11,476 bases of DNA. Origin: Patescibacteria group bacterium. GTDB taxonomy: Bacteria; Patescibacteriota; Minisyncoccia; Minisyncoccales; CG1-02-41-26. Within the stretch, counting starts at the first letter, position 1, and every line of letters begins with the position of its first letter. The notes beneath the pieces were generated by a model that saw nothing but the letters and a program-made list of their open reading frames with translations, was not told where the DNA came from and searched no databases. Location of the stretch: assembly GCA_018830365.1 (NCBI GenBank), contig JAHJSK010000078.1, forward strand, positions 1 to 11,476, read 5' to 3'. A program made the translations under genes and the position numbers. Positions 1-11,476 of this stretch are shown in pieces.

Positions 1-138
1 GAATTAATGGGATGGGATAAGGATACAGCAAAAGCGTTTGTAAAAGCAGAAAAAGAAGCAAAAGAAAAAAAAGAAAAAGAGGAGGAGAAAAAAGAAAAAG
101 AGGAAGAGGCAAACAAGGAAAAGGAAAATAAAACATAA
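1..138 (+). CDS. 3' end of an upstream gene (partial; start is outside the window). Lys/Glu-rich low-complexity tail ...WDKDTAKAFVKAEKEAKEKKEKEEEKKEKEEEANKEKENKT*
   Basis: Frame 1 is open from the window edge to TAA at 136-138, checked codon by codon. The listed minus-strand ORF 4..252 (poly-F/L) is the mirror image of this purine-rich coding run. P1 starts 15 nt downstream, so the layout is operon-like. Confidence 0.4.
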   Translation, partial: ELMGWDKDTAKAFVKAEKEAKEKKEKEEEKKEKEEEANKEKENKT

Positions 139-152
139 GTGTAAATAAAAAT

Positions 153-575
153 ATGTTTCAAGAACCAATTCAAAAAGAAAATTTATCCGACACTTCAGAT
201 TTAATAAGCTCCGAAGACATTGCTTTAATTCTTTCAGCAATTTGCGTGTCAAGCGGCATAGAACAAGAGGAGGAAATTGAAAAAGTGTCTTATCAAGTTG
301 CCCGAGTTTTATTTAACGACTTGCCGTCTGAATTGCTCGCCAAATCTTTAAATGAAAACGAAGGTTTTTCTTTGGAAATAGCTGAAACAATTGCTCAAAA
401 AGCCGACCGCTATATTTTTTCGCAAATAGAAAAATCCGTTTCAAATGAAGAATCGGCCGTGCCAGATGAAGAACCTTTTTCAGAAAAATCCGAAATCATT
501 GAAAGCCCTATGGCTGAAAATCCTTTAACCAAAAACCCTCCAAAAGATGATGTTTATCGCGAACCAATAGAATAG
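153..575 (+). CDS. Small acidic protein P1 (140 aa), paralog of P2 (2575..3066). The C-terminal tail is ...DDVYREPIE
   Basis: ATG..TAG ORF with no signal peptide or TM segment. The core VARVLFNDLPSELLAKSLNENEGFSLEIAETIAQKADRYIF aligns with P2 VGNVLMGLFPPENFLASLQVELNIEKEKSQNIFQEINRFIF. The last 30 nt (545-574) match the 3' end of P2 at 29 of 30 positions. Confidence 0.6.
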   Translation: MFQEPIQKENLSDTSDLISSEDIALILSAICVSSGIEQEEEIEKVSYQVARVLFNDLPSELLAKSLNENEGFSLEIAETIAQKADRYIFSQIEKSVSNEESAVPDEEPFSEKSEIIESPMAENPLTKNPPKDDVYREPIE

Positions 576-588
576 AAGGCATTAACAT

Positions 589-636
589 AATTTTCAATTT
601 TCAAGCACCAATTTACAATCAATTTTCAATTTTCAA
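589..636. repeat. Two copies of the 16-mer AATTTTCAATTTTCAA (589-604 and 621-636) flanking GCACCAATTTACAATC. The stretch 596-614, AATTTTCAAGCACCAATTT, recurs at 6816-6836 with one mismatch.
   Basis: Direct reading of the sequence, with positions indexed by hand. Confidence 0.6.
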
Positions 637-699
637 AATCCTAAACAAAAGTTTAAAAATTTTTGTTTACTTTCCTCTCGCTTTGCTTCGCTTGATAAT

Positions 700-740
700 A
701 AAAAAGGAGGGACACTGATGTATCCCCCCCTTGTATCCTG
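700..740 (-). terminator. Intrinsic terminator for the minus-strand SPFH gene. The same hairpin also reads as a hairpin on the + strand downstream of P1.
   Basis: The minus strand reads AAGGGGGGGAUACAUCAGUGUCCCUCCUUUUUUUAUUAUC. This gives a 9-10 bp stem with two G-U pairs followed by a U7 tract, beginning about 10 nt after the TAA stop (complement of 747-749). Confidence 0.5.
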
Positions 741-746
741 CTGGAT

Positions 747-1991
747 TTATTGGGTTTTAGTAATCGTACTCCCAACTTTCAGAATGTTCTGCACCTCGGC
801 TATCGCTCCTGAAAAATTTCCGCCTTTCCATTCAACCACTGTTCCAATTTCGCGATCCAAATAAAATTCAACTAATTGGTCAGTCTTACTAACAGCTTCT
901 TCTTCGGTGAGTTTTGGTTGCTCTTCCTTCAATCGGTTCAATGTTTGGAGATAAATCCCAACTATTTTTTCCGCGTCTGCTTTGGCTTTTTTCCTCGCTG
1001 CGTTTGCAAGGTTTCCTTGGATGATTTCCTCTTGAGCACTCTCATAGACCGCTTGTCTTTTTTTGAGTACTTCGGGCGACCATACAAAGTTGGGGAAAAT
1101 TATTCGTGTAGTTTCAAGCCCGTATCCATTTATCGCCTTTTCAACATCTGATTTTTCATCTACTTTACCCGCAATGTCCTCTTTCCAATCTTTGCCAACA
1201 TTTTTTTTCTGTCCATCGCCAAAAAAATCCTTTATTTCCAGGTTTCTAAAAAGGGTGTTAATAGCGGTCTCGGCTTTTGCTCGAATCGCAACCTGGTAGT
1301 TTTGTGTTTCGTATACCGCGCGGTAGACATTTTTTCTTATTTCTTTCTCTTTTTTTTCTTCAATGTCGCTCGTGGTGTCATTTGCATTTGGGTCAATATC
1401 ATCCAGGATTTTAATCCCCCAGAGAGCCCCTGGCAAAGTCACTGTTCCGCCCCCTTTCATATCAAGTTCATTTCTACTTTTCTCTCCTTCGTCATTTTTT
1501 TTTGGCAAAAAGAGTTCAATGAAATGTTCTTGTGTGCTTATTATGTTCCCACTCATAACCCATGGAACAAGAAATTTTGGGCCTGGTCCTTCAATCTTCC
1601 AGAAAGCTCCACAAACCGTTGTAACCAGCCGCTGTTTTTCTTGGATTTGCGCAAACCATTCCCGTAAAAAGCACACTATCACAATTCCAACAACAAGCCA
1701 CAAAGCCCATTGCCACCACCAGCCTGTCTGACAAAACCAAAAAGGCGCGCATGCGTACACAAGGGCAATCACGCAAACAAGAAAATAGCTGAAGAATGCC
1801 ACTTTTCCAACCCACGGTTCCGGCTCTGGCAATTTAAACTCTTTCTCCTTTGCCACTTTTCCCCGCGGCTTTGATTCTGGCAATCCAAGCTTCTTTTTCC
1901 TTTCCTCCTTTTTCATTTTTTTCGCCAACACCGCCCGAATCACCCAAGCAACGAAAATCAAAATCCCTGTCAAAATTATAATCCAAAACAT
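747..1991 (-). CDS. SPFH/band-7 (stomatin/prohibitin/HflK-like) domain membrane protein, 414 aa, with three N-terminal TM segments
   Basis: Complete ATG..TAA ORF. The revcomp of 1992-2006 gives UGGAGGUGAuuuagaAUG, a strong SD with a 6-nt spacer. TM helices are MFWIIILTGILIFVAWVI, VAFFSYFLVCVIALVYACAPFWF and WWWQWALWLVVGIVIVCFL. The SPFH-like entry motif is GAFWKIEGPGPKFLVPWVMSGNIISTQEHFIEL. A later alanine-rich coiled segment (EEIIQGNLANAARKKAKADAEKIVG) is typical of the band-7 C-terminal region. The family assignment is by eye. Confidence 0.6.
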   Translation of the reverse strand: MFWIIILTGILIFVAWVIRAVLAKKMKKEERKKKLGLPESKPRGKVAKEKEFKLPEPEPWVGKVAFFSYFLVCVIALVYACAPFWFCQTGWWWQWALWLVVGIVIVCFLREWFAQIQEKQRLVTTVCGAFWKIEGPGPKFLVPWVMSGNIISTQEHFIELFLPKKNDEGEKSRNELDMKGGGTVTLPGALWGIKILDDIDPNANDTTSDIEEKKEKEIRKNVYRAVYETQNYQVAIRAKAETAINTLFRNLEIKDFFGDGQKKNVGKDWKEDIAGKVDEKSDVEKAINGYGLETTRIIFPNFVWSPEVLKKRQAVYESAQEEIIQGNLANAARKKAKADAEKIVGIYLQTLNRLKEEQPKLTEEEAVSKTDQLVEFYLDREIGTVVEWKGGNFSGAIAEVQNILKVGSTITKTQ

Positions 1992-2159
1992 TCTAAATCA
2001 CCTCCAATATAATTGCATTGTGGGGAAGCATTGCTTCCTTCAACGCAATATTTTTAAAAATCTGGCATCTGTTTAATTTTATTCCAGACGCTTGATTACT
2101 GCCTACATTATAACAGAGCATTTTTAATTGTCAAGTTTTTAAGCGTGATTTTAATTTGT

Positions 2160-2211
2160 AAAAATCCTGTCCCTTATTCCAGCGATCGCGGTTTTAAGAG
2201 ACAGGATTTTT
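2160..2211. repeat. Hairpin/inverted-repeat element A. The arms are AAAAATCCTGTC (2160-2171) and GACAGGATTTTT (2200-2211), enclosing 28 nt that contain GCGATCGCGGTTTTA.
   Basis: Perfect 12-bp inverted repeat, verified base by base. It is homologous to element B (2285-2332). It has an A-run on the 5' side and a T-run on the 3' side, so it looks terminator-like in both directions. Confidence 0.7.
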
Positions 2212-2284
2212 GCAATAAATTAGTTTTGATAGAAATTTTATGGAGGTCTGACCTATGTAATTTTGAATCTGTATAAATTTAGAA

Positions 2285-2332
2285 AAATCCTGTCGGTTAA
2301 ACAGGCGATCGTGGTTTTAACCGACAGGATTT
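2285..2332. repeat. Hairpin/inverted-repeat element B. The arms are AAATCCTGTCGGTTAAA (2285-2301) and TTTAACCGACAGGATTT (2316-2332), with a 14-nt loop CAGGCGATCGTGGT.
   Basis: Perfect 17-bp inverted repeat. It shares AAAAATCCTGTC...GCGATCG(C/T)GGTTTTA...GACAGGATTT with element A, 124 bp upstream. Confidence 0.7.
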
Positions 2333-2497
2333 ATTTTCAAACGAAACGAGAGAAATAAAAATTCATTTTTTAAAAAATGAGCTCCGTAATATTTATGCCA
2401 TGGCATTATTATTACCTATGGTGATAAATTAAACATATTTAATAATAAACCCCGGACATTTGGAAGGGGTGTATTTTTGTTGCGCGAGTGGTTGCTG

Positions 2498-2538
2498 TTT
2501 TTGGGGTTGCTTTTCGCGTGTTCGCGTATTATTATTAG
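2498..2538 (+). promoter_or_regulatory. Promoter module R1. It has -35 TTGCTT (2507-2512), a 17-nt spacer, and -10 TATTAT (2530-2535). It also contains a small CGCG-UGUU-CGCG hairpin. It is predicted to drive P2, whose ATG is at 2575.
   Basis: The 41-bp block TTTTTGGGGTTGCTTTTCGCGTGTTCGCGTATTATTATTAG repeats at 3416-3462 with two substitutions. The sigma70-like spacing was verified by counting. Confidence 0.45.
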
Positions 2539-2574
2539 TGTTATTAGCTAATAGATTTTTAGTAAAAAGTATTT

Positions 2575-3066
2575 ATGTTGCAACAATATAATCAAAAAGA
2601 ACTCCAAGGATTGTTTGAAGTTTTACCCGAAGAATTAAAAGACGCTATTTTATCTGAACAAACCGCGGAAACAATCAGAAAAATTTGTGAACGGTATAAA
2701 ATAGAAGAAAGAAATATGTCTGAAATAGCAGGATTAGTTGGCAATGTTTTAATGGGTCTTTTCCCGCCGGAAAATTTTCTTGCATCTCTTCAAGTGGAGT
2801 TAAATATAGAAAAAGAAAAATCGCAAAATATTTTTCAAGAGATAAATCGTTTTATTTTCTTTCCTGTAAAAAATTTTCTTATAGAATTTTATCCAGAAAT
2901 TAAATTCGCTCATGGTGGCAAAGTCGCGGACGAAAGCATTGCCATAGAAGAAAAATTTGCGAAAGAAAAATTAGAAAAAATTGAATCGGAAAAAGCCGCG
3001 CCAATAGAGGAAAGCAAGGAGACAAAAAAAACAGGAGATGATGTTTATCGTGAACCAATAGAATAA
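2575..3066 (+). CDS. Small acidic protein P2 (163 aa), paralog of P1. The C-terminal tail is ...GDDVYREPIE
   Basis: ATG..TAA ORF with no signal peptide or TM segment. It has a K/E-rich C-terminal region and a core homologous to P1. The 3' 30 nt (3037-3066) are nearly identical to P1 545-574. Confidence 0.65.
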   Translation: MLQQYNQKELQGLFEVLPEELKDAILSEQTAETIRKICERYKIEERNMSEIAGLVGNVLMGLFPPENFLASLQVELNIEKEKSQNIFQEINRFIFFPVKNFLIEFYPEIKFAHGGKVADESIAIEEKFAKEKLEKIESEKAAPIEESKETKKTGDDVYREPIE

Positions 3067-3073
3067 AAAAAAG

Positions 3074-3098
3074 ATTTACAGAGGCCCGTCCTCTGTAA
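3074..3098. repeat. GC-rich palindrome family member 1: tTTACAGAGG-cccgt-CCTCTGTAAa
   Basis: 10-bp perfect inverted repeat with a 5-nt loop. It has outer TTAC/GTAA ends like members 2-5. Confidence 0.7.
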
Positions 3099-3142
3099 AA
3101 ACCTCTGCGAAAAGGTGAATTTGATAATTAAAAAAGATTTAG

Positions 3143-3167
3143 CATTACACCGTCCCGGACGGTGTAA
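3143..3167. repeat. GC-rich palindrome family member 2: aTTACACCGTCC-c-GGACGGTGTAAt (25-bp perfect palindrome). An identical copy lies at 3535-3559.
   Basis: Verified base by base. Confidence 0.75.
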
Positions 3168-3186
3168 TTTAATAATTCAGGGAATA

Positions 3187-3239
3187 AAACAATGTATCGC
3201 CGCCAGGCGGCGATACATTGCCTGGCGGCGATACATTGT
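3187..3239. repeat. Composite element made of a 31-bp perfect palindrome CAATGTATCGCCGCC-a-GGCGGCGATACATTG (3189-3219) followed by an 18-bp tandem duplicate CCTGGCGGCGATACATTG (3220-3237). The left arm can therefore pair with either of two right arms.
   Basis: 3202-3219 and 3220-3237 are direct repeats with one mismatch. 3187-3206 is exactly complementary to 3220-3239. The element is preceded by the direct-repeat motif AATTCAGGGAATAAAAC (3173-3189), which recurs at 3324-3340. Confidence 0.7.
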
Positions 3240-3280
3240 TGATTGCCTATAAACAAAGGAGTGGTTTACGGAAAATAAAA

Positions 3281-3307
3281 TTTTTACGGAGGTCAGACCT
3301 CCGTAAA
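3281..3307. repeat. GC-rich palindrome family member 3: ttTTACGGAGGTC-a-GACCTCCGTAAaa (27-bp perfect palindrome)
   Basis: Verified base by base. A degenerate relative, ATGGAGGTCTGACCTATGTAA, sits at 2241-2261. Confidence 0.7.
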
Positions 3308-3340
3308 ACTATTCCGAAATTTTGAATTCAGGGGATAAAA

Positions 3341-3363
3341 CTTACAGAGGTCCGACCTCTGTA
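3341..3363. repeat. GC-rich palindrome family member 4: TTACAGAGGTC-c-GACCTCTGTAA (23-bp perfect palindrome)
   Basis: Verified base by base. It is preceded by AATTCAGGGGATAAAAC (3324-3340). Confidence 0.7.
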
Positions 3364-3415
3364 AAAAGATTTTAATTTAATTTTAATTGAATTGAATTAT
3401 TCACAAGGAAACTCT

Positions 3416-3462
3416 TTTTTTGGGGTTGCTTTTCGCGTCCTCGCGTATTATTATTATTATTA
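3416..3462 (+). promoter_or_regulatory. Promoter module R2, the second copy of R1. It has -35 TTGCTT (3426-3431), a 17-nt spacer, and -10 TATTAT (3449-3454). It is predicted to drive a roughly 200-nt leader and the T4SS-like operon starting at 3660.
   Basis: Direct repeat of 2498-2538. Only the loop of the CGCG hairpin differs (TCCT versus TGTT). Confidence 0.4.
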
Positions 3463-3534
3463 GTTTTATTATTTTAAAATTGATTGATGCAATAGCGCAA
3501 AGGGTTTGTTAAGCATAATGTTTTAAAATTAATT

Positions 3535-3559
3535 TTTACACCGTCCCGGACGGTGTAAA
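3535..3559. repeat. GC-rich palindrome family member 5, an exact duplicate of member 2 (TTACACCGTCC-c-GGACGGTGTAA), located inside the predicted leader
   Basis: Verified base by base. Confidence 0.75.
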
Positions 3560-3609
3560 GCTATTTGAAAAAATATAGCGGAGGGTTGACCAATATAACC
3601 TGCATTCGC

Positions 3610-3646
3610 CTTGTCTCGCTAAGCGAGGCAAGCGGGGCTTTATTTG
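3610..3646 (+). terminator. Terminator-like hairpin, a possible attenuator, 14 nt upstream of the 3660 start codon. It reads CUUGUCUCGC-uaa-GCGAGGCAAG followed by CGGGGCUUUAUUUG.
   Basis: 10-bp stem with one G-U pair and a 3-nt loop, followed by a U-rich tract. Its position inside a leader rather than after a gene argues for conditional termination. Confidence 0.4.
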
Positions 3647-3659
3647 ATAGATAACCATT

Positions 3660-4070
3660 ATGGAATTTAAAGTGCCAAAATTTTTAGAAAGAGAATCAAA
3701 ATTTTTTAGCATCTTAACCTTCAAGCAATTAGCTTGCGTCGGGATTATTGGTCTTGTTTTATTTATTTTGTATTATATTGTTCCCAAGTCAACCTTTTTC
3801 TTTTTAGTCGTTTTTTTCGGAGGAGGAAGCATGGTTTTAATGATTGTCAATATTGAGGGAGTGCCTCTTTACCAATTGGCCGGACATTCTTTGAATTATT
3901 TGCTTTCTTCTAAAAAATTTATTTGGTCAAGAAAAGAAAAGCCATTTATTAAATTATTAAACAAAGAAAGAGAGGAAGCGAAAGAAAAAAAAGCAGACGC
4001 GCCTTTAAAGATTTCCCCGGAAAGCAGCTTGGGCAAATTATCGTCCCGAATTGAGCGAGGGGTGCAGTAG
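3660..4070 (+). CDS. PrgI/VirB3-like small 2-TM T4SS protein (136 aa)
   Basis: The N-terminus MEFKVPKFLERESKFFSILTFKQL resembles the VPK...F.LT.RQL opening of PrgI/VirB3-family proteins. It is followed by two TM helices (ACVGIIGLVLFILYYIV and FFFLVVFFGGGSMVLMIVNI). It lies directly upstream of a VirB4-family gene, which is the canonical virB3-virB4 arrangement. No SD. Confidence 0.55.
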   Translation: MEFKVPKFLERESKFFSILTFKQLACVGIIGLVLFILYYIVPKSTFFFLVVFFGGGSMVLMIVNIEGVPLYQLAGHSLNYLLSSKKFIWSRKEKPFIKLLNKEREEAKEKKADAPLKISPESSLGKLSSRIERGVQ

Positions 4071-4074
4071 ATAA

Positions 4075-4264
4075 CGCAAAACTCAAAGCGCAAAACGCAA
4101 AACTAAAACGAAAATGTTAAAACTAACGCAAAATATTGATTCTGTTATTTTTCGTTGAGAGCAAGTAAATTTGAGGCTGAATTTCCTAAGGGATTGGGGA
4201 AACATCAAAAAAAGATTTAAGTTTTAAAATAAACTTTGAGTTTTGCGTTTTGAGTTTTGCGTTT
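4075..4264. repeat. Imperfect inverted repeats of GCAAAAC-family simple sequence. Left arm 4075-4110, right arm 4235-4264 (tandem TTTTGAGTTTTGCG x2). They bracket a roughly 125-bp AT-rich spacer and abut the VirB4-N start codon.
   Basis: GCAAAACTCAAA (4076-4087) is exactly complementary to TTTGAGTTTTGC, which is present twice in the right arm. Confidence 0.6.
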
Positions 4265-4270
4265 AATCGT

Positions 4271-4930
4271 ATGTCTCAATCATTTTCACAACAATTTTTA
4301 GAAATAGCTGACATCAAAGAAGGCGTGCTGGTTTTAAAAAACAGAGCTATGCGGGGCGTGCTAATGGTGTCCTCAATAAATTTTGATTTAAAATCAGAAG
4401 ATGAGCAAAAAGCTGTTATTTACCAATTTCAGGGATTTTTAAATTCCTTAGATTTTTCCTGTCAAATTATTGTTCAATCAAGAAAATTAAACATCACTGG
4501 TTATTTTGACAAATTAAAAGAATTGGAAAGGGCTCAAGAAAATGAACTTTTAAAAATTCAAACCACTGAATATCGGAAATTTATTGAGGAAATGGTAGGC
4601 GGAGGAACGATTATGAGAAAAGAATTTTTACTCGTTATTCCTTTTACTCTTTTTGAAACCAAGGGAATAATTGGCGGGAGCATGAGCGCTCTTAAAGGAG
4701 TTTTGGGAAAAAAAGAAAATTTTTTCGGATTAGGAGAAGAAAATTTCCAAAGATGCCGAGACCAACTTTATCAAAGAATGGAGTTTGCGGCTATTTGTTT
4801 GCGGCGATGCGGATTAACATCCATCCCTTTGACAACGCCAGAATTAATTGAACTTTTTTGGAGCCTTCATCATCCAAAAGAAGCGGAGTATGGTTATTAT
4901 CCAGAGATATTGCCAGAAATGATCAAATGA
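4271..4930 (+). CDS. virB4: VirB4-family N-terminal domain encoded as a separate ORF (220 aa from ATG 4271; the ORF track extends it to TTG 4250 inside the repeat)
   Basis: The stretch FLEIADIKEGVLVLKNRAMRGVLMVSSINFDLKSEDEQKAVIYQFQGFLNSLDFSCQIIVQS matches the conserved N-terminal block of Gram-positive-type VirB4/TcpF/PrgJ/ConE proteins. The ORF is in the same frame as the next one and ends with TGA. 220 aa plus 595 aa gives about 820 aa, the usual VirB4 length. Confidence 0.55.
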   Translation: MSQSFSQQFLEIADIKEGVLVLKNRAMRGVLMVSSINFDLKSEDEQKAVIYQFQGFLNSLDFSCQIIVQSRKLNITGYFDKLKELERAQENELLKIQTTEYRKFIEEMVGGGTIMRKEFLLVIPFTLFETKGIIGGSMSALKGVLGKKENFFGLGEENFQRCRDQLYQRMEFAAICLRRCGLTSIPLTTPELIELFWSLHHPKEAEYGYYPEILPEMIK

Positions 4931-4966
4931 AAATTTTAAATTTCAAATTTTAAATTTCAAATTTTT
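4931..4966. repeat. 36-bp tandem repeat (AAATTTTAAATTTCAA x2 plus ATTTTT) separating the two VirB4 ORFs. It contains an in-frame TAA at 4937-4939.
   Basis: Direct reading. It belongs to the same AATTTTCAA-type simple-sequence family as 589-636. Confidence 0.7.
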
Positions 4967-6754
4967 ATGTTTTCTTTTTTAAAGAAAAAAAATACTATTG
5001 AAGAATTGAAAATTGAACCAGAAGAATTTTTTGTTCAGGACCTTATTGCGCCACCTTCAATAGAAATATCAGGGAACCGTTTAAAATTGGGAGAAAGATT
5101 TTCCAAGACCTTTTTTGTTTTTTCTTATCCGCGATATCTTTCCACTGGCTGGATGTCTCCAGTAATCAATCTCAATTATCCTCTGGATATTTCTTTTCAT
5201 ATTCATCCCATAGACACCAATGAAATTTTAAAAAAACTGCGAAAAAAATTAACAGAAGTGCAAGCAGAATTAATGGAAAGAGAAGAAAAGGGACTGATCC
5301 GCGACCCGACCTTAGAAACAGCGTACAATGACATTGAAACACTAAGGGACTCTCTTCAGACAGTTCAAGAAAGAGTTTTTCAATTAGGAATTTATGTAAC
5401 TATTTACGCGGACAATGAAAAAGAACTAAGCGAGGTTGAAACTAAATTAAGGTCCATATTTGAGCCCCGGCTAATTTATGTTAAGCCCGCGCTATTAAGA
5501 GAAAAAGAGGGTTTTACTTCCACCGCGCCATATGGATTAGACGAAATTATGGTTCACACTCCAATGAACACGGAACCCTTGTCCAGCATTTTTCCTTTTA
5601 TCTCTCCTGATCTAAGCGCAAATGAAGGAATTTTGTATGGTTTGAATAAGCACAACAATTCTTTGGTTCTTTTTGATCGCTTTACTTTGGAAACAGGAAA
5701 TATGTGCGTTTTTGGCAAGTCCGGCTCTGGCAAAAGCTTTTTCTGCAAGTTGGAGACCTTAAGATATTTAATGCAAGGAGTGGATTGCATTGTTATTGAC
5801 CCGGAAAACGAATATGAATGGCTCGCTAACGCGGTTGGCGGGTCTTTTTTCAAAATTTCCTTAACTTCTCCTCATCATTTAAATCCTTTTGATTTGCCTG
5901 CGCCAAAAGAAGATGAAAAAGCGGAAGATGTTTTAAGGGCTAATGTGATAAACTTGGTGGGACTTTTTAGAATAATGTTAAGCAATTTGACTCCGCAGGA
6001 AGACGCTATCATAGACAGGGCTATTGCTGAAACATATTATGCCCGAGACATTACCGCCGATTCGGACCCAGCCACATGGAAAGACAAAACACCTTTAATG
6101 TCGGACTTTCAGACAATTTTGGAAGGAATGGAAGGAGCCGAGTCCTTGGTGGAGCGCGTAAGAAAATTTACCACTGGAAGCTATGGCCAATTTTTTAACA
6201 ACCCCTCTAATGTTTCTGTGGACAAAAACCTTGTTGCATTTGGGATTAGAGATATGGAAGAAGAATTAAGGCCAATGGCAATGTTTCTCATTTTAAGATA
6301 TATTTGGAATAATGTAAAAGCAGAATTAAAAAAAAGAATTTTGTTAGTGGACGAGGCATGGTGGTTGATGCGGACAGAAGATGGCGCTTCTTTTCTTTTC
6401 GGCATTTGCAAGAGGTCTAGAAAATATTGGTTAGGCGTTTCCACTATTACGCAGGACATTAGCGATTTTATGAAATCAACTTATGGCCAGCCAATTATTA
6501 CCAACTCGTCATTGTTGCTTTTGATGAAGCAATCGCCAGCTGCCATTGATTACGCGCAAAAAACATTTAATTTAACTGAGCAGGAAAAATTTCTTTTATT
6601 GGAATCCGATGTGGGGGAGGGGATTTTCCTTGCGGGCAAAAAAAGAGTGGCTTTGAAAGTAATCGGTTCTTACGCGGAAGAGCAAATTATTACCAGCGCT
6701 CCGGAACAAGTGGAAAAAATAAAACAAGCTAAGAAGAGATTGAATAACATTTGA
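4967..6754 (+). CDS. virB4: VirB4/TraC/TrbE-family T4SS ATPase, middle and C-terminal domains (595 aa)
   Basis: Walker A is VFGKSGSGKSFF. Walker B is the VirB4-typical ILLVDEAWWL (DEAW). The family-typical downstream block is RSRKYWLGVSTITQDISDF. The middle-domain pattern is FFVFSYPRYLSTGWMSPVINLNYPLDISFHIHPID. Confidence 0.85.
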   Translation: MFSFLKKKNTIEELKIEPEEFFVQDLIAPPSIEISGNRLKLGERFSKTFFVFSYPRYLSTGWMSPVINLNYPLDISFHIHPIDTNEILKKLRKKLTEVQAELMEREEKGLIRDPTLETAYNDIETLRDSLQTVQERVFQLGIYVTIYADNEKELSEVETKLRSIFEPRLIYVKPALLREKEGFTSTAPYGLDEIMVHTPMNTEPLSSIFPFISPDLSANEGILYGLNKHNNSLVLFDRFTLETGNMCVFGKSGSGKSFFCKLETLRYLMQGVDCIVIDPENEYEWLANAVGGSFFKISLTSPHHLNPFDLPAPKEDEKAEDVLRANVINLVGLFRIMLSNLTPQEDAIIDRAIAETYYARDITADSDPATWKDKTPLMSDFQTILEGMEGAESLVERVRKFTTGSYGQFFNNPSNVSVDKNLVAFGIRDMEEELRPMAMFLILRYIWNNVKAELKKRILLVDEAWWLMRTEDGASFLFGICKRSRKYWLGVSTITQDISDFMKSTYGQPIITNSSLLLLMKQSPAAIDYAQKTFNLTEQEKFLLLESDVGEGIFLAGKKRVALKVIGSYAEEQIITSAPEQVEKIKQAKKRLNNI

Positions 6755-6806
6755 CAATTGACAATTGACATTTGACAATTGACAATTGACATTTGACATT
6801 TGACAA
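6751..6806. repeat. Heptanucleotide microsatellite (TTGACAW)x8, with units TTGACAA or TTGACAT. It overlaps the VirB4 stop codon (TGA inside the first unit) and lies about 100 bp upstream of the pilin-like gene.
   Basis: Eight perfect 7-bp units counted by index from 6751 to 6806, then TTAG. Each unit carries the sigma70 -35 consensus hexamer. Confidence 0.85.
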
Positions 6807-6836
6807 TTAGCAAATAATTTTCAAGCTCCAATTTTT

Positions 6837-6895
6837 GTCCCTTCGGGACATCACCCGTAGGGTGATCGTCCTGCGGATGACCACCCGTAGGGCGG
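6837..6895 (+). promoter_or_regulatory. GC-rich multi-hairpin leader element. It contains GTCCC-uuc-GGGAC, AUCACCC-gua-GGGUGAU, GUCC-ugc-GGAU and CCACCC-gua-GGGCGG. CACCCGTAGGG occurs as a direct repeat at 6853-6863 and 6883-6893.
   Basis: Four consecutive triloop hairpins in a roughly 60-nt island of about 60% GC within AT-rich DNA, ending 13 nt before ATG 6909. Confidence 0.4.
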
Positions 6896-6908
6896 CAATG
6901 AAATTCCA

Positions 6909-8066
6909 ATGAATCAATTTTCAAACAACACTAAAAAAATATTAATCGGTTTTTTATTGGTCGGATTTGTTTTTTCGTCATCGTTGGTTTTGGCTGCGCA
7001 AGCCCAGCAAACGCGGACTTCTGTTTTTGAAATAAATTATCCGACAATACCCGGCGCGTACACGCCTCAACAAATTTCATCGCGGCCAGAATCAGAGCGC
7101 TTGCCTCTTTACATTAATTATTTTCTCCGTTTGTTTTTTATTCTTGCTATTGGAATTGCCGCGGCAATGGTTCTTTTTGGCGGGGTTCTTTATTTGGCTT
7201 CTCGAGGAATGGACAAGCCAGCGCTTTTGATTTTGGCAAATGCCCGCATACAACAAGGGCTCTTGGGCCTTTTAATCATTGTGTCCGCGTATTTGGTTTT
7301 GGCTGTTATTAATCCTCAATTATTGGTCTTTAAGACAATGATACCGACCGCGCCCGGAGACATTACTGTTGGCGAACCTGCTTTTAACAACAAAGTTCCT
7401 TTTGTAAAAGCGCCCATTGGCTGTTTAATGGATAATTTTTTAAAATCCCTTATGTCAACAACAACTGCGTCAACAACTTGCAATGGAAACAATTATACTC
7501 AACCAAATGTCTACAAAATTGAACTTCCTCTTTGGGAGGCATTAAAACTTTTAGATTGCGCGCAAACATTGTCAGAAGAGATTGTGGTTTTATTGGAAGA
7601 TTGCAAGTGCGGGAAGTCAATATATCATGTAGCAAGACCATTTGGCTCTGACAAAACAACTTGCGTGGGGGGAGTAGACGCGTTAGCTCGAATAGGGAAA
7701 TGCGATGAAAATTGTAAAAATTGCGGAGAAGGGGAAAAGGTTTGGGGAGGTACCATATATATATGTCCCACTTCAACCTTAGCAATAAAGAGAGATGAAC
7801 TCGCGGGTATTATGAGCAAATTAAAAGGAAGCGAGTTTAAAACAAATTTTGAGCAAATAGAGTTGATTAGAAAAACATTGGGAACGAACTCTGCTGAGTA
7901 TTTAACCCGGGAATTGCAAGGATATAGTTTTCAAGAGGATTTTAATGAGCAGGCAAAAAAATTAAAAGAACAGGGATACGATGTTGCGGAGACAATAACT
8001 TCGCAATATCCTGAAAAATGCAAAATTGACCCTTTTACTTTTTATGCGCCGATCAAGGGAGAATAG
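6909..8066 (+). CDS. Secreted membrane protein (385 aa) with a signal peptide, a VirB2/TrbC pilin-like pair of hydrophobic helices, and a Cys-rich C-terminal domain
   Basis: The signal peptide is MNQFSNNTKKILIGFLLVGFVFSSSLVLAAQA|QQ. The two hydrophobic helices FLRLFFILAIGIAAAMVLFGGVLYLAS and GLLGLLIIVSAYLVLAVINP are separated by a short loop. The C-terminal domain has more than 10 Cys (CKCGKS..CVGG..CDENCKNCGEGE..ICPTS). No SD. Confidence 0.6.
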   Translation: MNQFSNNTKKILIGFLLVGFVFSSSLVLAAQAQQTRTSVFEINYPTIPGAYTPQQISSRPESERLPLYINYFLRLFFILAIGIAAAMVLFGGVLYLASRGMDKPALLILANARIQQGLLGLLIIVSAYLVLAVINPQLLVFKTMIPTAPGDITVGEPAFNNKVPFVKAPIGCLMDNFLKSLMSTTTASTTCNGNNYTQPNVYKIELPLWEALKLLDCAQTLSEEIVVLLEDCKCGKSIYHVARPFGSDKTTCVGGVDALARIGKCDENCKNCGEGEKVWGGTIYICPTSTLAIKRDELAGIMSKLKGSEFKTNFEQIELIRKTLGTNSAEYLTRELQGYSFQEDFNEQAKKLKEQGYDVAETITSQYPEKCKIDPFTFYAPIKGE

Positions 8067-8144
8067 TTTGTAGCTTATTAGCTTGTAGCTTATTAGGGAA
8101 TTTCCTAAGAAGCTAAAAAGCTAAAAAGCTAAGAAGCTAAAAAC
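8067..8144. repeat. Spacer built from TAGCTTATTAG x2 (8071-8081 and 8086-8096), a GGAATTTCC centre, then the octamer (AAGCTAAA)x4 (8110-8141) ending 3 nt before the ATG of the giant gene. The two halves are imperfect inverted repeats of each other.
   Basis: Direct reading. CTAAGAAGCTA (8105-8115 and 8128-8138) is the revcomp of TAGCTTATTAG with one mismatch. Confidence 0.7.
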
Positions 8145-11100
8145 ATGTTTCACAATTCCCACATAAAAAAAATAATAATCAGTGGCTTATTGCTTGGATT
8201 GATTTTTCAATCCAGCATCTCTTTTGCCGTGGCAACAAATCCTTTGCCAAATCCTTATCCAGAAGAACTGCTTAAACACAACACAAATGTGCTTTACGAA
8301 AACGAAAGATTTAGTTTGTTTTTGGTTTTGAGCCGTTTGTCATTGGAAGAGCTTCAAGAAATGCTGAAAGAATGTTTGGCTATGGCTTTTCGTACCGAAG
8401 GAGAATTTAAAATGAGCACAACAACACTTAGCGCAACTATTGACCAATCCTTTAAAGATGGATTGTCTAATTTTTTAGCTGAGTATTTGAGTCCGGGCAG
8501 TGATGATTATGCCGAAGCGTTTTATAAAAAATTAAAAGATGAAATAAATGAAAAATATGAAACATGCACAAGCACAGAAGCGGAAAGACCGGATTGCATT
8601 CAAAAATGCGTGAACCAAGAAGGAATTTCCGAAACAGAGTGCGCGAGAAAATGCAGGAAAACAAGCAAAGCAATTTCCGACCTTTTGGCTGATTTTTTAA
8701 CTGGGGATTTAAGATCTAAACTTCCAAGTGAAATTCAAAAAATTCTTAATGAGCGATTAAGAGATGTTATTTTTTCAGATAAAGTGAACGCTATTTTAAG
8801 CACAAGCACTTTGGCTGTTTTAAACAAGGCGCTCGGCGAAGCTTTGAATAAAACTATTGTTGATGAAGTTCCTGCTTTAAAAGAAACCTTGGGCAGAAAA
8901 GTAACAAGTTATATGGCGCCTTCGCTTGTAAAGCCGCTGGAAAAAATAGATCGACTTTTATCATTTAAAATAGAGGATTTAAAAACATATATAGACAATA
9001 AAATAGCGAGCACTACCGCGACAATGGCCGCTAAATTAAAAGAAGCGGTGACAAAGACCAAAAATACCGCAAACGCGGGGACAAATCTTGATAGAACAGG
9101 GTGTTGTAACATTGCTTATTTTAGGGGCGAACATTGGTATTGGAGCTTCACAGAAAGAAAATGCAAGTACGCAGACAGAGCTTATATAAACGATCACTGG
9201 AGTACAATTTTATTAGGGATTAGAGATTGCGGCACCAAGGATACCAATATAATACCCGGGGAAACTATGTCCCCGCCTCAAAATCAGATAGATTTTTGCG
9301 AGATGTCATCGGATTCCTGCTGGCAGAATAGCGTGTGCGCGCAATGCGACAAAGCGGAAACATGGAAAGAAGTATTTAATATTGGGCAATGGTGGAGCTC
9401 GTTCACTAAAAATTTATTCACTGCTTTGCTCGCTATGCCTCAGCAAATAATGCTCGCTATGATTGATGTTGCGGCTCACACTTTAACAGAGTACGCCCAG
9501 GTCTGGGTGGAAGACGAACTCATTGCTCCGCTCCAGCCCTATTTTAATAAATTCGCGGAGTTTCAGAAAAAACTCCATAAAGCGCTGAATTACACGGTTG
9601 CGGATCTTTTGCCTAAACAAGCAAAAGTTTTATTGACAAGCAACGCTGACCAGATATTGGACATGATATGCAAGGGCGCACAAAAAGGCGGGATAGATAT
9701 AGGATCAGAAGAAGAAGAAATCAAAAAAAATAGAGAGGCGGCTTGTAATACTTACAAAGAACTTCACCAAGACCTCTTAAGCCAATTAGCAGACACCGGG
9801 CATTTGGGCAAGGAAATCAAGGACGCTTTAAACAGCACGGTTTTTAAATTACTTCCGTCAAATTTGCAACAACTTCTCGCAAGCTCTACCGCTGAGCTTC
9901 TCTGGCCTGAAATAACTAATATTAAAAAATTAATTTTAGGAACGCCAAAGCAAATTATTTGCGGCGAGCTTTTTAATAAAAATTTTGAAGTAAAAATTGA
10001 CGACACTAATTCATCGGTTTTTGAAAAATGCACTACAGCGGGACCAATAGGATTAAGAACAACGCAAGGCACGATTGGACTCCTTCCTTACATAGACAAA
10101 ACCAGTACTTTTTGGACAGGACTAAACAGCGGACTCAAAGAAAAATACGCTATTTCCTGCCCCATTATTTGGTATGTGTGTCAAAACCCTCTTTCCCCAT
10201 GGGGCGCAAAGGTTGGAGATGTGCTCGTTAATATTATAAGTAGTCAATGCGCGAGCATAGATAAAAAAACAAGCAACAAATGCGGCTGGAACAATTATAG
10301 CGCGCCTGCAAACGCAAATTTGCCTGACGAGTTTAAGCCCGGGTGCGCGGCTTGTAAAACTTTAAATTCTTCTCTGGCATTTAGTTTGTTTAAATATGGA
10401 ATGGAGCAAAAATATGGCACCAGCACTGCGGCTGTATCTCCAACTAACCCAAGACTAAATGAGCGCGCGGCTTATCAATGGCTTTATGTGGCTTTTCCGC
10501 TTTTAAGAGACAGCGCCAACATTTCAAATTTTAATGGCGGGACAAAGCAAGTGGCAGTAGTGGCAAGAGGATTTAAAGAAGCAGAGTGGGATGATAATGT
10601 CCCAAATAGCACAAGCAGTATTGTCCAAGAAATAAAATATTATTCTGGCACTAGTGAACTTCCTCCATCAGCCACTGCGTTGGCGCAAACTTTTATAACT
10701 TGGATGACCAATGAAGCGTCTGGCAAAGAAATTCTTACTTCCATTCCATTGGGCGTGATCAAGCCATTTAATCCCGGGGAGGCAACATTGCTAAGAGACG
10801 CTGGCAAAGGTTCTAAAAATGAAGAGTTCCTTGCTTACACGCCTTATGAGTTTTTGGAACAAGAATTGTGCCGCAAAGTAATCGCGGATTTTAAAAAAGA
10901 TTATTCCACTTCTACCATAGAAGCGATTATGGCAACTGAAGCAAATAAATTAGCCCAAATAAGCGGGATTCCTTATTCAGTTGAAAGCTTGCGACATACA
11001 ACTATGGCGCAAGCGGAACAAATTCTTTTGAGCAATGACGAAATTGACGCTGAACGCAAAGCCAGTTATCTTACTTGTTTTGCGTTGGACAAAAAACCAG

Positions 11101-11476
11101 CCGCGCTATTTGGTTTGGACCAAAAACTGATTGAATATGTAAGGCCTGAACCGTACAAAGTTCTTTTTACTTTAATCAAAGAAAAATTAAAAGAGGACGA
11201 AAGACCAACCCTTTTAAATAAACTTTTAATTTATCTTTATAGATGGAACCCTGTTGACCTTGCTTGCGCGATATTGACGAAAAAATCATATGACGCAGAC
11301 GAGCGAGCTGTTATTGATAATGCTTCAAGCACTCCAGCTGAGATAGCCGCTGCGCAAAAAAGAATAGAAAGCAAAAAAACAATGACTGATTTTGCCTGCA
11401 ATTTCTTGGGCACTACTATGGGAGATCGGATAAAAAAATATTTGCCAAAAAAGGAGATGATTTGTCTTATCGCGGA
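8145..11476 (+). CDS. Giant secreted Cys-rich protein, more than 1110 aa. The 5' end is complete and the 3' end runs past the window edge.
   Basis: Frame 3 is open from ATG 8145 to the window end. It was checked codon by codon at 9051-9120 and 10200-10260, where other frames have TAG/TAA. The signal peptide is MFHNSHIKKIIISGLLLGLIFQSSISFA|VA. There are many Cys clusters (CIQKCVNQ..ECARKCRK, GCCNIAYF, CEMSSDSCWQNSVCAQCD, CAACKTL). It is mostly hydrophilic. All listed minus-strand ORFs in this span are antisense artefacts. Confidence 0.65.
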   Translation, partial: MFHNSHIKKIIISGLLLGLIFQSSISFAVATNPLPNPYPEELLKHNTNVLYENERFSLFLVLSRLSLEELQEMLKECLAMAFRTEGEFKMSTTTLSATIDQSFKDGLSNFLAEYLSPGSDDYAEAFYKKLKDEINEKYETCTSTEAERPDCIQKCVNQEGISETECARKCRKTSKAISDLLADFLTGDLRSKLPSEIQKILNERLRDVIFSDKVNAILSTSTLAVLNKALGEALNKTIVDEVPALKETLGRKVTSYMAPSLVKPLEKIDRLLSFKIEDLKTYIDNKIASTTATMAAKLKEAVTKTKNTANAGTNLDRTGCCNIAYFRGEHWYWSFTERKCKYADRAYINDHWSTILLGIRDCGTKDTNIIPGETMSPPQNQIDFCEMSSDSCWQNSVCAQCDKAETWKEVFNIGQWWSSFTKNLFTALLAMPQQIMLAMIDVAAHTLTEYAQVWVEDELIAPLQPYFNKFAEFQKKLHKALNYTVADLLPKQAKVLLTSNADQILDMICKGAQKGGIDIGSEEEEIKKNREAACNTYKELHQDLLSQLADTGHLGKEIKDALNSTVFKLLPSNLQQLLASSTAELLWPEITNIKKLILGTPKQIICGELFNKNFEVKIDDTNSSVFEKCTTAGPIGLRTTQGTIGLLPYIDKTSTFWTGLNSGLKEKYAISCPIIWYVCQNPLSPWGAKVGDVLVNIISSQCASIDKKTSNKCGWNNYSAPANANLPDEFKPGCAACKTLNSSLAFSLFKYGMEQKYGTSTAAVSPTNPRLNERAAYQWLYVAFPLLRDSANISNFNGGTKQVAVVARGFKEAEWDDNVPNSTSSIVQEIKYYSGTSELPPSATALAQTFITWMTNEASGKEILTSIPLGVIKPFNPGEATLLRDAGKGSKNEEFLAYTPYEFLEQELCRKVIADFKKDYSTSTIEAIMATEANKLAQISGIPYSVESLRHTTMAQAEQILLSNDEIDAERKASYLTCFALDKKPAALFGLDQKLIEYVRPEPYKVLFTLIKEKLKEDERPTLLNKLLIYLYRWNPVDLACAILTKKSYDADERAVIDNASSTPAEIAAAQKRIESKKTMTDFACNFLGTTMGDRIKKYLPKKEMICLIA

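Follow-up and report, generated by a model that had tools for sequence, protein, structure and literature searches.

REP-like palindromes upstream of a type IV secretion-like operon in a Patescibacteria genome and their association with a RAYT-type transposase

Introduction

A dense cluster of palindromes is found upstream of a type IV secretion system (T4SS)-like operon in an 11,476-nucleotide stretch of DNA (contig JAHJSK010000078.1, positions 1 to 11,476, assembly GCA_018830365.1) from a Patescibacteria group bacterium, hereafter called the window. The cluster raises the question of whether such palindromes serve the adjacent operon or belong to a family of repeats with a life of its own. 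A preliminary description of the window proposed repetitive extragenic palindromic (REP) elements, an origin of transfer (oriT), terminators and small structured RNAs as candidate identities. The analysis reported here indicates that the TTAC-stem-GTAA palindromes are very probably REP-like elements, served by a REP-associated tyrosine transposase (RAYT) of the Y1/HUH type that is encoded elsewhere in the genome. Their repetition, dispersal, concentration in one taxon, adjacency to RAYT genes and genome-specific co-variation, and the fold of the associated protein, were observed directly.

The window is part of the 23.9-kb metagenome contig ERZ27247117:k141_638233 of the European Nucleotide Archive. 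An 18.2-kb portion of this contig is referred to as locus L001, in which window position x corresponds to position x + 4119, and other loci are designated in the same manner.

Palindromes in the spacer upstream of the PrgI gene

The 594-bp spacer between a 163-aa open reading frame (ORF) and the gene encoding a PrgI/VirB3-like protein contains six strong palindromes, H1 to H6, whose arms measure 10-15 bp and whose loops measure 1-5 nt (Table 1). Hairpins with a stem of at least 10 bp and a loop of at most 5 nt occur six times in the 11.5-kb window, all within positions 3075-3559, against a mean of 0.26 and a maximum of 2 in 200 dinucleotide-preserving shuffles. The pattern TTAC-N15-19-GTAA was matched five times, compared with a shuffle mean of 0.57. 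Folding as single-stranded DNA gave free energies (dG) of -8.5 to -11.7 kcal/mol and z-scores of -5.6 to -7.5 (-9.1 kcal/mol and -7.5 for H1), and H4 and H5, which are 33 nt apart, fold as separate hairpins.

Five of the six palindromes have the TTAC...GTAA foot, with inner stems that differ and are fully compensated, as had been described; the accompanying inference, that compensated stems reflect the selection or generation of hairpins and not of a linear site, also holds. The five had been called perfect, which is not correct for H1, since it has a 5-nt loop or, in an alternative description, 12 arm positions of which 11 are paired with a single C.T mismatch. The clustering noted earlier is real, and the earlier list is extended by H3, a longer palindrome with a different foot. 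Similarly, the GC content of 60-70% assigned to the palindromes applies to the inner 15-17 nt only, the whole hairpins having 44-58% GC, and the exact duplication reported for 3143-3167 and 3535-3559 is confined to the 23-nt core shared by H2 and H6 (3145-3167 and 3536-3558). Watson-Crick symmetry is perfect without G.T pairs, which, together with the C.T mismatch of H1, favours a constraint at the DNA level over one at the RNA level, although this is suggestive only.

Partial duplications of palindrome arms were also detected, as short matches read by eye. The right arm of H3 is repeated at 3221-3240, which yields two alternative hairpins (3188-3240; dG -28 kcal/mol), part of the left arm of H4 recurs as TTTACGGA at 3267-3274, and CCTCTG is found at 3102-3108. 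A 17-nt direct repeat had been placed before two palindromes of the TTAC type; one copy does precede H5, and the other precedes H3, which is not of this type. A degenerate relative of the family is indeed present further upstream, its core GGAGGTCTGACCT lying at 2242-2254 and not at 2250-2262. The full decayed copy resembles H4 with three substitutions and has lost stable folding (Table 1).

Absence of the palindromes from related operons

In the closest relatives of the operon (L088-L091, VirB4 93% identical) the PrgI gene begins 40 bp after ComEC, and in L094 (VirB4 78% identical) it begins 14 bp after a single 150-aa gene (8405-8857). Neither palindromes of this kind nor a long spacer upstream of PrgI were found in the T4SS loci of these relatives, which contradicts the link between the palindromes and the operon implied by the preliminary description. 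Judged by gene order against L094, the genome under study appears to have gained about 3 kb between a 140-aa gene and PrgI. This region contains a Band_7 gene, the 163-aa ORF and spacers rich in REP-like palindromes and in a second palindrome family, F2. Because the relatives have neither the spacer nor the hairpins, the cluster is assigned to a lineage-specific, rearranged region and not to a conserved part of the operon. The boundaries of the insertion were sought through the 140-aa and 163-aa ORFs, which share their start and the C-terminus DDVYREPIE and are evidently old paralogues; at 32% identity, the duplication is too old to help.

Dispersed copies in the same strain

Further copies were identified in another spacer of the source contig, 5.5 kb upstream, where the reverse complement of H5 (L001 1633-1657) and an exact copy of H1 (L001 1703-1727) bracket a member of the F2 family (L001 1655-1705). 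The F2 palindromes are about 50 nt long and follow the pattern AAAAATCC(T)TGTC..GCGATCGC..GACA(A)GAT, with a conserved foot (ATCCTGTC/GACAGGAT), a conserved centre (CGATCG) and compensated middle stems. The REP-F2-REP composite (L001 1633-1727, about 95 nt) folds as one long hairpin (-31.9 kcal/mol), and further, slightly decayed units of F2 and H1 are located at L001 46-118 and 201-273. Two F2 members, F2a and F2b, lie in the window, and copies 87-92% identical to F2b are present on L128 (173-228 and 3743-3797).

The JGI sample 3300015370 (Ga0180009) holds the same strain, since 3057 bp of its contig L149 match L001 at 100% identity. H2-type copies are present on three contigs of this sample (L102, L126 and L128), and L126 and L128 carry the core of H2 and H6. 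L128 also contains F2 copies, a near-identical H4-type copy (3844-3868) and a related GTTGGCAGAGGTC.GACCTCTGCCAAC copy, and L102 contains H5-like and GTTGGC-type copies. The TTAC palindromes are known from four intergenic spacers of the 24-kb contig and from three further contigs of the same sample. F2, H3 and a promoter-like repeat of the window (described below) were sought in all fetched loci and occur only in contigs of this strain or sample.

Several assemblies break exactly at the palindromes. The beginning of an independent contig (L002) falls inside H3 and that of L126 at a hairpin, L113 terminates within a hairpin, and most of the contigs bearing a RAYT gene are just 0.9-2.5 kb long. 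Breakage of short-read assemblies at the palindromes explains the fragmentation of metagenome-assembled genomes (MAGs) at such loci.

Tandem ACATTTGACAATTGACA repeats with 7- and 14-nt periodicity, rich in TTGACA, were noticed between VirB4 and the next gene (window 6747-6823). A similar sequence, ACATTTGACATTTGACAATG, adjoins the H2-type copies on L126 and L128.

Distribution of the family in Patescibacteria

One genome per GTDB species was scanned with the pattern TTACRGAGGN5CCTCYGTAA / TTACRGAGGNNNNNCCTCYGTAA, which gave 85 stretches. Among the 80 of these that were listed, 57 come from named Patescibacteria lineages and 15 from scattered other taxa. The Patescibacteria concerned include Paceibacterota, Saccharibacteria, Nomura-, Nealson-, Adler- and Wildermuth-bacteria, Magasanikiibacteriota and Minisyncoccia. 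Genomes of this group, for which the name candidate phyla radiation (CPR) is in use too, make up an estimated few percent of the bases in the scanned collection. Metagenomes were scanned as well, with a pattern that takes in H1, H2 and H5; this gave 56 stretches, with seven occurrences of the exact 23-mer of H5, and the exact 23-mer of H1 was also found on other CPR contigs. In both scans, which covered whole collections, the motif fell overwhelmingly to MAGs of Patescibacteria.

Nearly all matches of the scans extend to arms of 11-13 bp with a single centre base (GGTCNGACC, GGACNGTCC or GGCCNGGCC). Many are nested in a longer palindrome, CTGTGGATAACT-TTAC..GTAA-AGTTATCCACAG (L100, L115, L134 and others), and the 17-nt module of the window (CAGGGGATAAAAC) is the homologue of the outer half-palindrome CTGTGGATAACT.

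Association with a RAYT-like transposase

In a Paceibacterota MAG (L052), inverted copies of TTACGGAGG...CCTCCGTAA lie on both sides of a 235-aa ORF. The ORF contains the motifs YHV..RG, MPNHIHLL (the HUH motif) and YIHTNP, and scores 39.1 bits against the Pfam family Y1_Tnp, for which the gathering threshold is 23. This protein was compared by phmmer with the six-frame ORFs of all loci, which had been preselected by DNA pattern alone, and homologues were detected in 13 loci of the genome scan and 11 loci of the metagenome scan. The palindromes abut or flank the RAYT-like gene in all 13 laid-out loci of the genome scan. In the metagenome-scan loci, the RAYT ORF lies within about 100 bp of the match (L101, L102, L113 and L139) or contains it (L116 and L132). 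Three RAYT loci picked solely by protein homology (L154, L155 and L156), which served as an unbiased control, are all flanked by such palindromes, and the sequence of H4 itself is found directly upstream of the RAYT gene in L050.

The palindromes co-vary with the RAYT locus of their own genome. All seven copies on five contigs of JAQTVQ01 have the sequence TTACAGAGGCC[C/G]GGCCTCTGTAA, and all six copies in JBAYJV01 are TTACGGAGGACGGACCTCCGTAA or its complement, in both cases the same as the flanks of the RAYT gene. The dispersed copies in DAIPKT01, CAZCYM01, CAZVXQ01 and CAYQPN01 likewise match the RAYT flanks.

A RAYT assigned to the strain under study, P0121 (262 aa; accession MBU2578989.1), is encoded on L102 next to an H2-type palindrome. 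The identical protein is found on two contigs, ERZ27247117:k141_129432, which comes from the assembly of the window contig, and Ga0180009_10053261, and it scores above the gathering threshold of Pfam Y1_Tnp. The downstream flank of its gene (L102/L152) contains TTTACAGAGGTCAGGCCTCTGTAAA and also AGCATTACACCGTCCCGGACGGTGTAATTTAAT, which matches window positions 3141-3173 exactly over 33 nt. The preliminary description had suggested a search of the flanking DNA for a relaxase or a RAYT; neither was detected on the source contig, and the RAYT was found on another contig of the assembly.

A protein search gave 2021 RAYT-like homologues at E <= 1e-5, the named ones all from Patescibacteria and annotated merely as 'transposase'. 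In an alignment of 51 homologues, H112 and H114 of the HUH motif and Y174 and N178 are invariant. The AlphaFold model of P0121 (pLDDT 80) has as its best match in the PDB 4ER8_A (E 3.9e-5, target TM 0.62), the REP-associated tyrosine transposase of E. coli in complex with a REP hairpin, followed by the TnpA proteins of IS608, ISDra2 and IS200 (E about 1e-2). This match came from the fold search only, the sequence search of P0121 against PDB chains having returned nothing meaningful. Together with the dispersal and the adjacency of RAYT genes, the fold supports the earlier suggestion of REP-like substrates of a HUH/RAYT enzyme.

The upstream, internal and downstream hairpins of one RAYT locus have the same sequence. 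At least 8 of the 13 laid-out RAYT-like genes contain an in-frame copy of the palindrome of their own locus (L152 1588-1622, which is the minus strand of L102; L052 6058-6080; L023, L057, L015, L012, L048 and L026). The internal copy precedes the HUH motif in one clade, where it separates this motif from the YHV..RG strand, and follows it immediately in another. In P0121 (internal copy, e.g., EEVGRGLTSANF) the segment of residues 68-95 has a pLDDT below 50. The internal copy co-varies with the flanking copies, which could reflect autoregulation through binding of the transposase to its own coding sequence.

In L152 (3-930), the gene encoding P0121 is directly downstream of two T4SS_pilin (PF18895) genes, and the repeat system and T4SS-related genes are thus neighbours at a second locus too. 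This adjacency could be a coincidence or could result from repeat-mediated shuffling of pilin paralogues.

Proposed mechanism

By analogy with the E. coli TnpA-REP system and IS608, each unit would fold into a hairpin on transiently single-stranded DNA. A RAYT dimer would bind the hairpin and its foot, and would then cut and rejoin the adjacent single-stranded DNA. Such cutting and rejoining may seed new copies and partial arm duplications, often beside existing copies; the clusters, doublets and arm duplications of the window would follow from this, because new copies would be seeded beside old ones. The cluster at 3075-3559 would then represent copies accumulated in a lineage-specific, rearranged spacer, and H1, H2, H4, H5 and GTTGGCAGAGGTCTGACCTCTGCCAAC are candidate single-stranded substrates of P0121. 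Termination of transcription, insulation of the 163-aa ORF from the PrgI-VirB4 operon, or stabilization of the 3' end of the upstream mRNA, is possible as a secondary effect.

Several observations count against the assignment to the REP/RAYT systems. The foot of the CPR palindromes is TTAC/GTAA, compared with GT[AG]G in enterobacterial and pseudomonad REPs, although the GT[AG]G foot defines the classical REP subfamilies and not the REP kind as a whole. The ORF of L052 scores 45.1 bits on the NCBIfam RAYT equivalog NF047646, below its cutoff of 80; the RAYT-like proteins of CPR are a divergent clade. Copy number in the relatives is low, with at most about seven exact matches per MAG, no palindromes were found away from the gene in the 12-20-kb RAYT loci L154-L156, and the organism under study has at least four stem variants instead of one homogeneous family. 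On the 24-kb source contig, neither the recorded domains nor a tblastn search of P0121 against L001 revealed a RAYT gene or relic, which is normal for REPs. We infer that P0121 belongs to the same genome from its co-occurrence with the repeats in two assemblies and from the shared exact repeats.

Alternative explanations

The palindromes might instead be the ends or solo relics of an autonomous insertion sequence (IS) of the IS200/IS605 type, similar to miniature inverted-repeat or palindrome-associated transposable elements (MITE/PATE-like), with the Y1 gene an ordinary selfish transposase and not a host-maintained RAYT. This is unlikely. The protein does belong to Pfam Y1_Tnp and scores below the RAYT equivalog cutoff, the TnpA proteins of IS608, ISDra2 and IS200 are also among its structural matches, and TTAC is the target and cleavage tetranucleotide of IS608. 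In L154-L156 the palindromes are found only beside the gene, as IS ends would be, and the RAYT gene has different neighbours in L155 and L156. However, the hairpins at one locus are identical, without the distinct left and right ends of an IS, and solo hairpins are located tens of kb from any Y1 gene or on other contigs. A single Y1 gene per MAG was found among the multi-locus MAGs sampled, an incomplete sampling in which solo hairpins dominate. In addition, the flanks of the RAYT locus are identical in assemblies from different sites (L023, L101, L109 and L139), no tnpB partner was seen, and the top structural match is a RAYT and not an IS TnpA.

It is very unlikely that the hairpins are primarily terminators, insulators or mRNA-stabilizing stem-loops that are independent of a transposase, although E. 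coli REPs do stabilize upstream mRNA. H1 begins 8 nt past the stop codon of the 163-aa ORF, a consensus scan marks H1, H4, H5 and H6 as terminator-like on the minus strand, and T-runs follow many family copies in other CPR (e.g., GTAAttttt in L008, L016, L035, L049 and L051). However, U-tracts are missing from all the hairpins on the plus strand, on which both flanking genes are encoded, and this counts against the terminator candidate of the preliminary description; there is also no minus-strand gene to the right that would need termination. Terminator-like sites number 12 in the window against 12.3 in shuffles, and the canonical terminators of CPR (A-tract, GC stem, 4-nt loop and T-tract) differ from the palindromes and coexist with them in the same loci. 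A role in termination would also leave the RAYT adjacency, the genome-specific identity and the in-frame genic copies unexplained.

An array of small or guide RNAs (e.g., TIGR), or a set of operator palindromes for a dimeric regulator, is highly improbable. TIGR stem-loop arrays do occur in CPR, with stems that are variable and consistently palindromic (PMC12045711). Their architecture differs from that of the window, where the loops are 1-5 nt long and neither the ORFs of the window nor the genes recorded on the contig have a Nop domain according to Pfam, and a TIGR-Tas array was rejected in the absence of a Nop/Tas gene. The structured-RNA candidate was likewise rejected, since an Rfam search of the whole window gave no significant family, only sub-threshold miRNA-like matches that reflect the hairpins themselves. 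A perfect dyad with a 1-nt centre is typical of dimer-binding sites; operators, however, would conserve their sequence and not compensate their inner stems, and would be kept with the regulated operon in relatives, in which the hairpins are missing.

The suggestion that the cluster is an oriT or another DNA-processing site of the adjacent machinery, made because of several inverted repeats immediately upstream of the PrgI, TraC-like and VirB4 genes, was rejected as barely conceivable, since the 24-kb contig has no recorded domain of a relaxase or coupling protein, the closest relatives have neither hairpins nor spacer, the hairpins are also found at loci unrelated to the operon and within housekeeping genes, and the T4SS of CPR is a conserved chromosomal system whose clusters mostly lack relaxases (bioRxiv 10.1101/2025.01.22.634366).

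In-frame copies in housekeeping genes

The fetched loci together contain 156 distinct TTAC..GTAA palindromes, of which 26 (about 17%) are in frame inside ORFs of at least 150 aa, where they encode ..Y-R-G-x-x-S-V.. (Table 1). The host genes that were checked are real and encode SecA, arginyl-tRNA synthetase, enolase, a radical-SAM enzyme, a POR/TPP enzyme and Mur ligases (murE). The copy in enolase sits at the linker between the N- and C-terminal domains. It forms an insertion of about 18 nt or six codons (RGRASV) relative to the CPR enolase of L156, which has no copy; the two proteins are 62% identical and the junction is ambiguous. In MurE, the motif or decayed traces of it occur in several lineages. 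An insertion boundary was also sought in murE and no clean empty site was found, the loop being variable in all homologues, many of them with decayed copies.

Tentatively, Patescibacteria as a whole may carry an undescribed REP/RAYT system with a perfect palindrome of about 18-27 nt. The system would be partly similar to the Rickettsia palindromic elements (RPEs), inserting in frame both into the RAYT gene and into essential genes (murE, secA, argS, eno, radical-SAM and POR), in the latter at loops and linkers, and the cluster of the window would be an unusually expanded, multi-variant instance in one Paceibacterota lineage. Because CPR genomes are about 1 Mb in size and highly streamlined, a repeat and transposase system across many phyla is not expected to be neutral baggage. 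The palindromes mark rearranged regions and can pass for operon-specific regulatory or oriT sites. If the in-frame copies are confirmed, they would be the second independent case, after Rickettsia, of palindromic selfish DNA tolerated in the proteins of a reduced, host-dependent bacterium, and unlike Rickettsia, the CPR case would come with an identifiable enzyme.

Genes and other features of the locus

The close homologues of the VirB4-like ATPase number in the thousands, and the named ones are all from Patescibacteria (Nealsonbacteria, Gribaldobacteria and Pacebacteria). Because of this, the host organism is taken to be a Paceibacterota-type CPR bacterium, as judged by protein sequence. The operon is the chromosomal CPR T4SS, a system from which relaxases are mostly missing (bioRxiv 10.1101/2025.01.22.634366). 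A search of the window for tRNA and tmRNA genes gave none.

Table 1. Palindromes, repeats and genes discussed in the text. Positions refer to the window unless a locus is named.
Feature	Position	Strand	Sequence or structure	Remarks
H1	3075-3099		TTTACAGAGG-CCCGT-CCTCTGTAAA	REP-like; 10-bp stem, 5-nt loop
H2	3144-3168		ATTACACCGTCC-C-GGACGGTGTAAT	REP-like; 12-bp arms
H3	3190-3220		CAATGTATCGCCGCC-A-GGCGGCGATACATTG	Different foot; sixth, longer palindrome
H4	3282-3308		TTTTACGGAGGTC-A-GACCTCCGTAAAA	REP-like; 13-bp arms
H5	3342-3364		TTACAGAGGTC-C-GACCTCTGTAA	REP-like; 11-bp arms
H6	3535-3559		TTTACACCGTCC-C-GGACGGTGTAAA	REP-like; 23-nt core same as H2
17-nt module, copy 1	3174-3190	plus	AATTCAGGGAATAAAAC	Precedes H3
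17-nt module, copy 2	3325-3341	plus	AATTCAGGGGATAAAAC	Precedes H5
Decayed family copy	2236-2264		TTTTATGGAGGTCTGACCTATGTAATTTT	Like H4 with three substitutions; dG -1.8 kcal/mol, z -0.9
F2a	2156-2215		AAAAATCCTGTC..CCAGCGATCGCGG..GACAGGATTTTT	dG -15.2 kcal/mol
F2b	2281-2336		Foot and centre as F2a	Compensated middle stem GGTTAAA/TTTAACC
140-aa ORF	153-575	plus		
Band_7 gene	747-1991	minus		
163-aa ORF	2575-3066	plus		Paralogue of 140-aa ORF
PrgI/VirB3-like gene	3660-4070	plus		
TraC-like gene	4250-4930	plus		
VirB4-like ATPase	4967-6754	plus		
Membrane protein	6909-8066	plus		
>1100-aa protein	Continues past window end	plus		
In-frame copies	L021 473-495; L120 1866-1888; L124 1279-1301; L046 4136-4158; L148 8856-8878			
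In-frame copies, further	L121 10398-10420; L127 5043-5065; L123 2400-2422; L130 5290-5312			

A 49-nt direct repeat, TTTTTGGGGTTGCTTTTCGCG(TGTT/TCCT)CGCGTATTATTATTA, is present in two copies with 90% identity (window 2495-2543 and 3414-3462), which precede the 163-aa ORF by 32 nt and PrgI by 198 nt, respectively. Its core, TTGCTT-17-TATTAT, is promoter-like. H6 is placed between the second copy and the start codon of PrgI at 3660, and an imperfect GC hairpin lies before PrgI at 3610-3632. If the repeat is a promoter, H6 and this hairpin would fall in the putative 5' untranslated region.

A separate 8-nt tandem, CTAA(G/A)AAG, is repeated five times ahead of the large ORF (window 8105-8143). Outside the window, L001 has iteron-like TCTAATTCACCTAA repeats, both direct and inverted, at 1990-2126, 16786-16872 and 17290-17500; they flank a 133-aa gene of the 23S_rRNA_IVP family (PF05635, a four-helix bundle) and are also found upstream of a 701-aa gene.

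Comparison with known systems

The palindromes share several properties with the REPs and REPINs of E. coli, Pseudomonas and Stenotrophomonas. They are 23-31 nt long and, like those elements, form stable hairpins in single-stranded DNA. They also appear to resemble them in occurring as near-identical extragenic copies, often in clusters and doublets. Both kinds include a Y1/HUH transposase gene flanked by the same palindromes, and in both the genome-specific palindrome variant matches the flanks of the genome's own RAYT. The best fold match of the CPR protein, 4ER8, also belongs to this system. Unlike classical REPs, the CPR palindromes are for the most part perfect, their only unpaired base being the central one, and their copies appear to number from units to tens per genome of about 1 Mb, compared with hundreds. 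The expectation that dispersed copies would make them ordinary REPs is correct as to the kind of dispersal and not as to copy number, which looks like tens. The CPR protein, of about 240-260 aa with a C-terminal extension of about 100 aa, is longer than classical RAYTs, diverges from them and falls below the NCBIfam equivalog cutoff. The in-frame palindrome within the RAYT gene itself, and the sizeable share of copies in frame inside other genes, are likewise foreign to classical REP/RAYT systems.

The IS200/IS605 elements (IS608, ISDra2 and IS200) resemble the CPR system in their Y1 HUH transposase (Pfam Y1_Tnp) and in the hairpins beside the gene. The CPR system differs from them in flanking hairpins of the same sequence and dispersed solo hairpins, with no tnpB and no multi-copy whole elements seen. 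The RPEs of Rickettsia are also palindromic repeats in a reduced, host-dependent genome, and are found both between genes and in frame in housekeeping genes. They are about 100-150 bp long and, to our knowledge, have no cognate transposase, whereas the CPR units are about 18-27 nt long, are tied to a RAYT-like gene and have no sequence similarity to RPEs.

The TIGR-Tas arrays are similar in that they occur in CPR as tandem units with variable but palindromic stems. Each TIGR unit has loops with two 8-12-nt spacers and box C/D motifs, and the arrays lie beside a Tas gene with a Nop domain (PMC12045711). The palindromes described here have far shorter loops and no Tas gene, and the associated gene encodes a Y1 transposase. 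No paper linking REPs or RAYTs to Patescibacteria was found in the searchable literature. The system is most probably of the REP/RAYT kind, ordinary in mechanism and new in its taxon and details.

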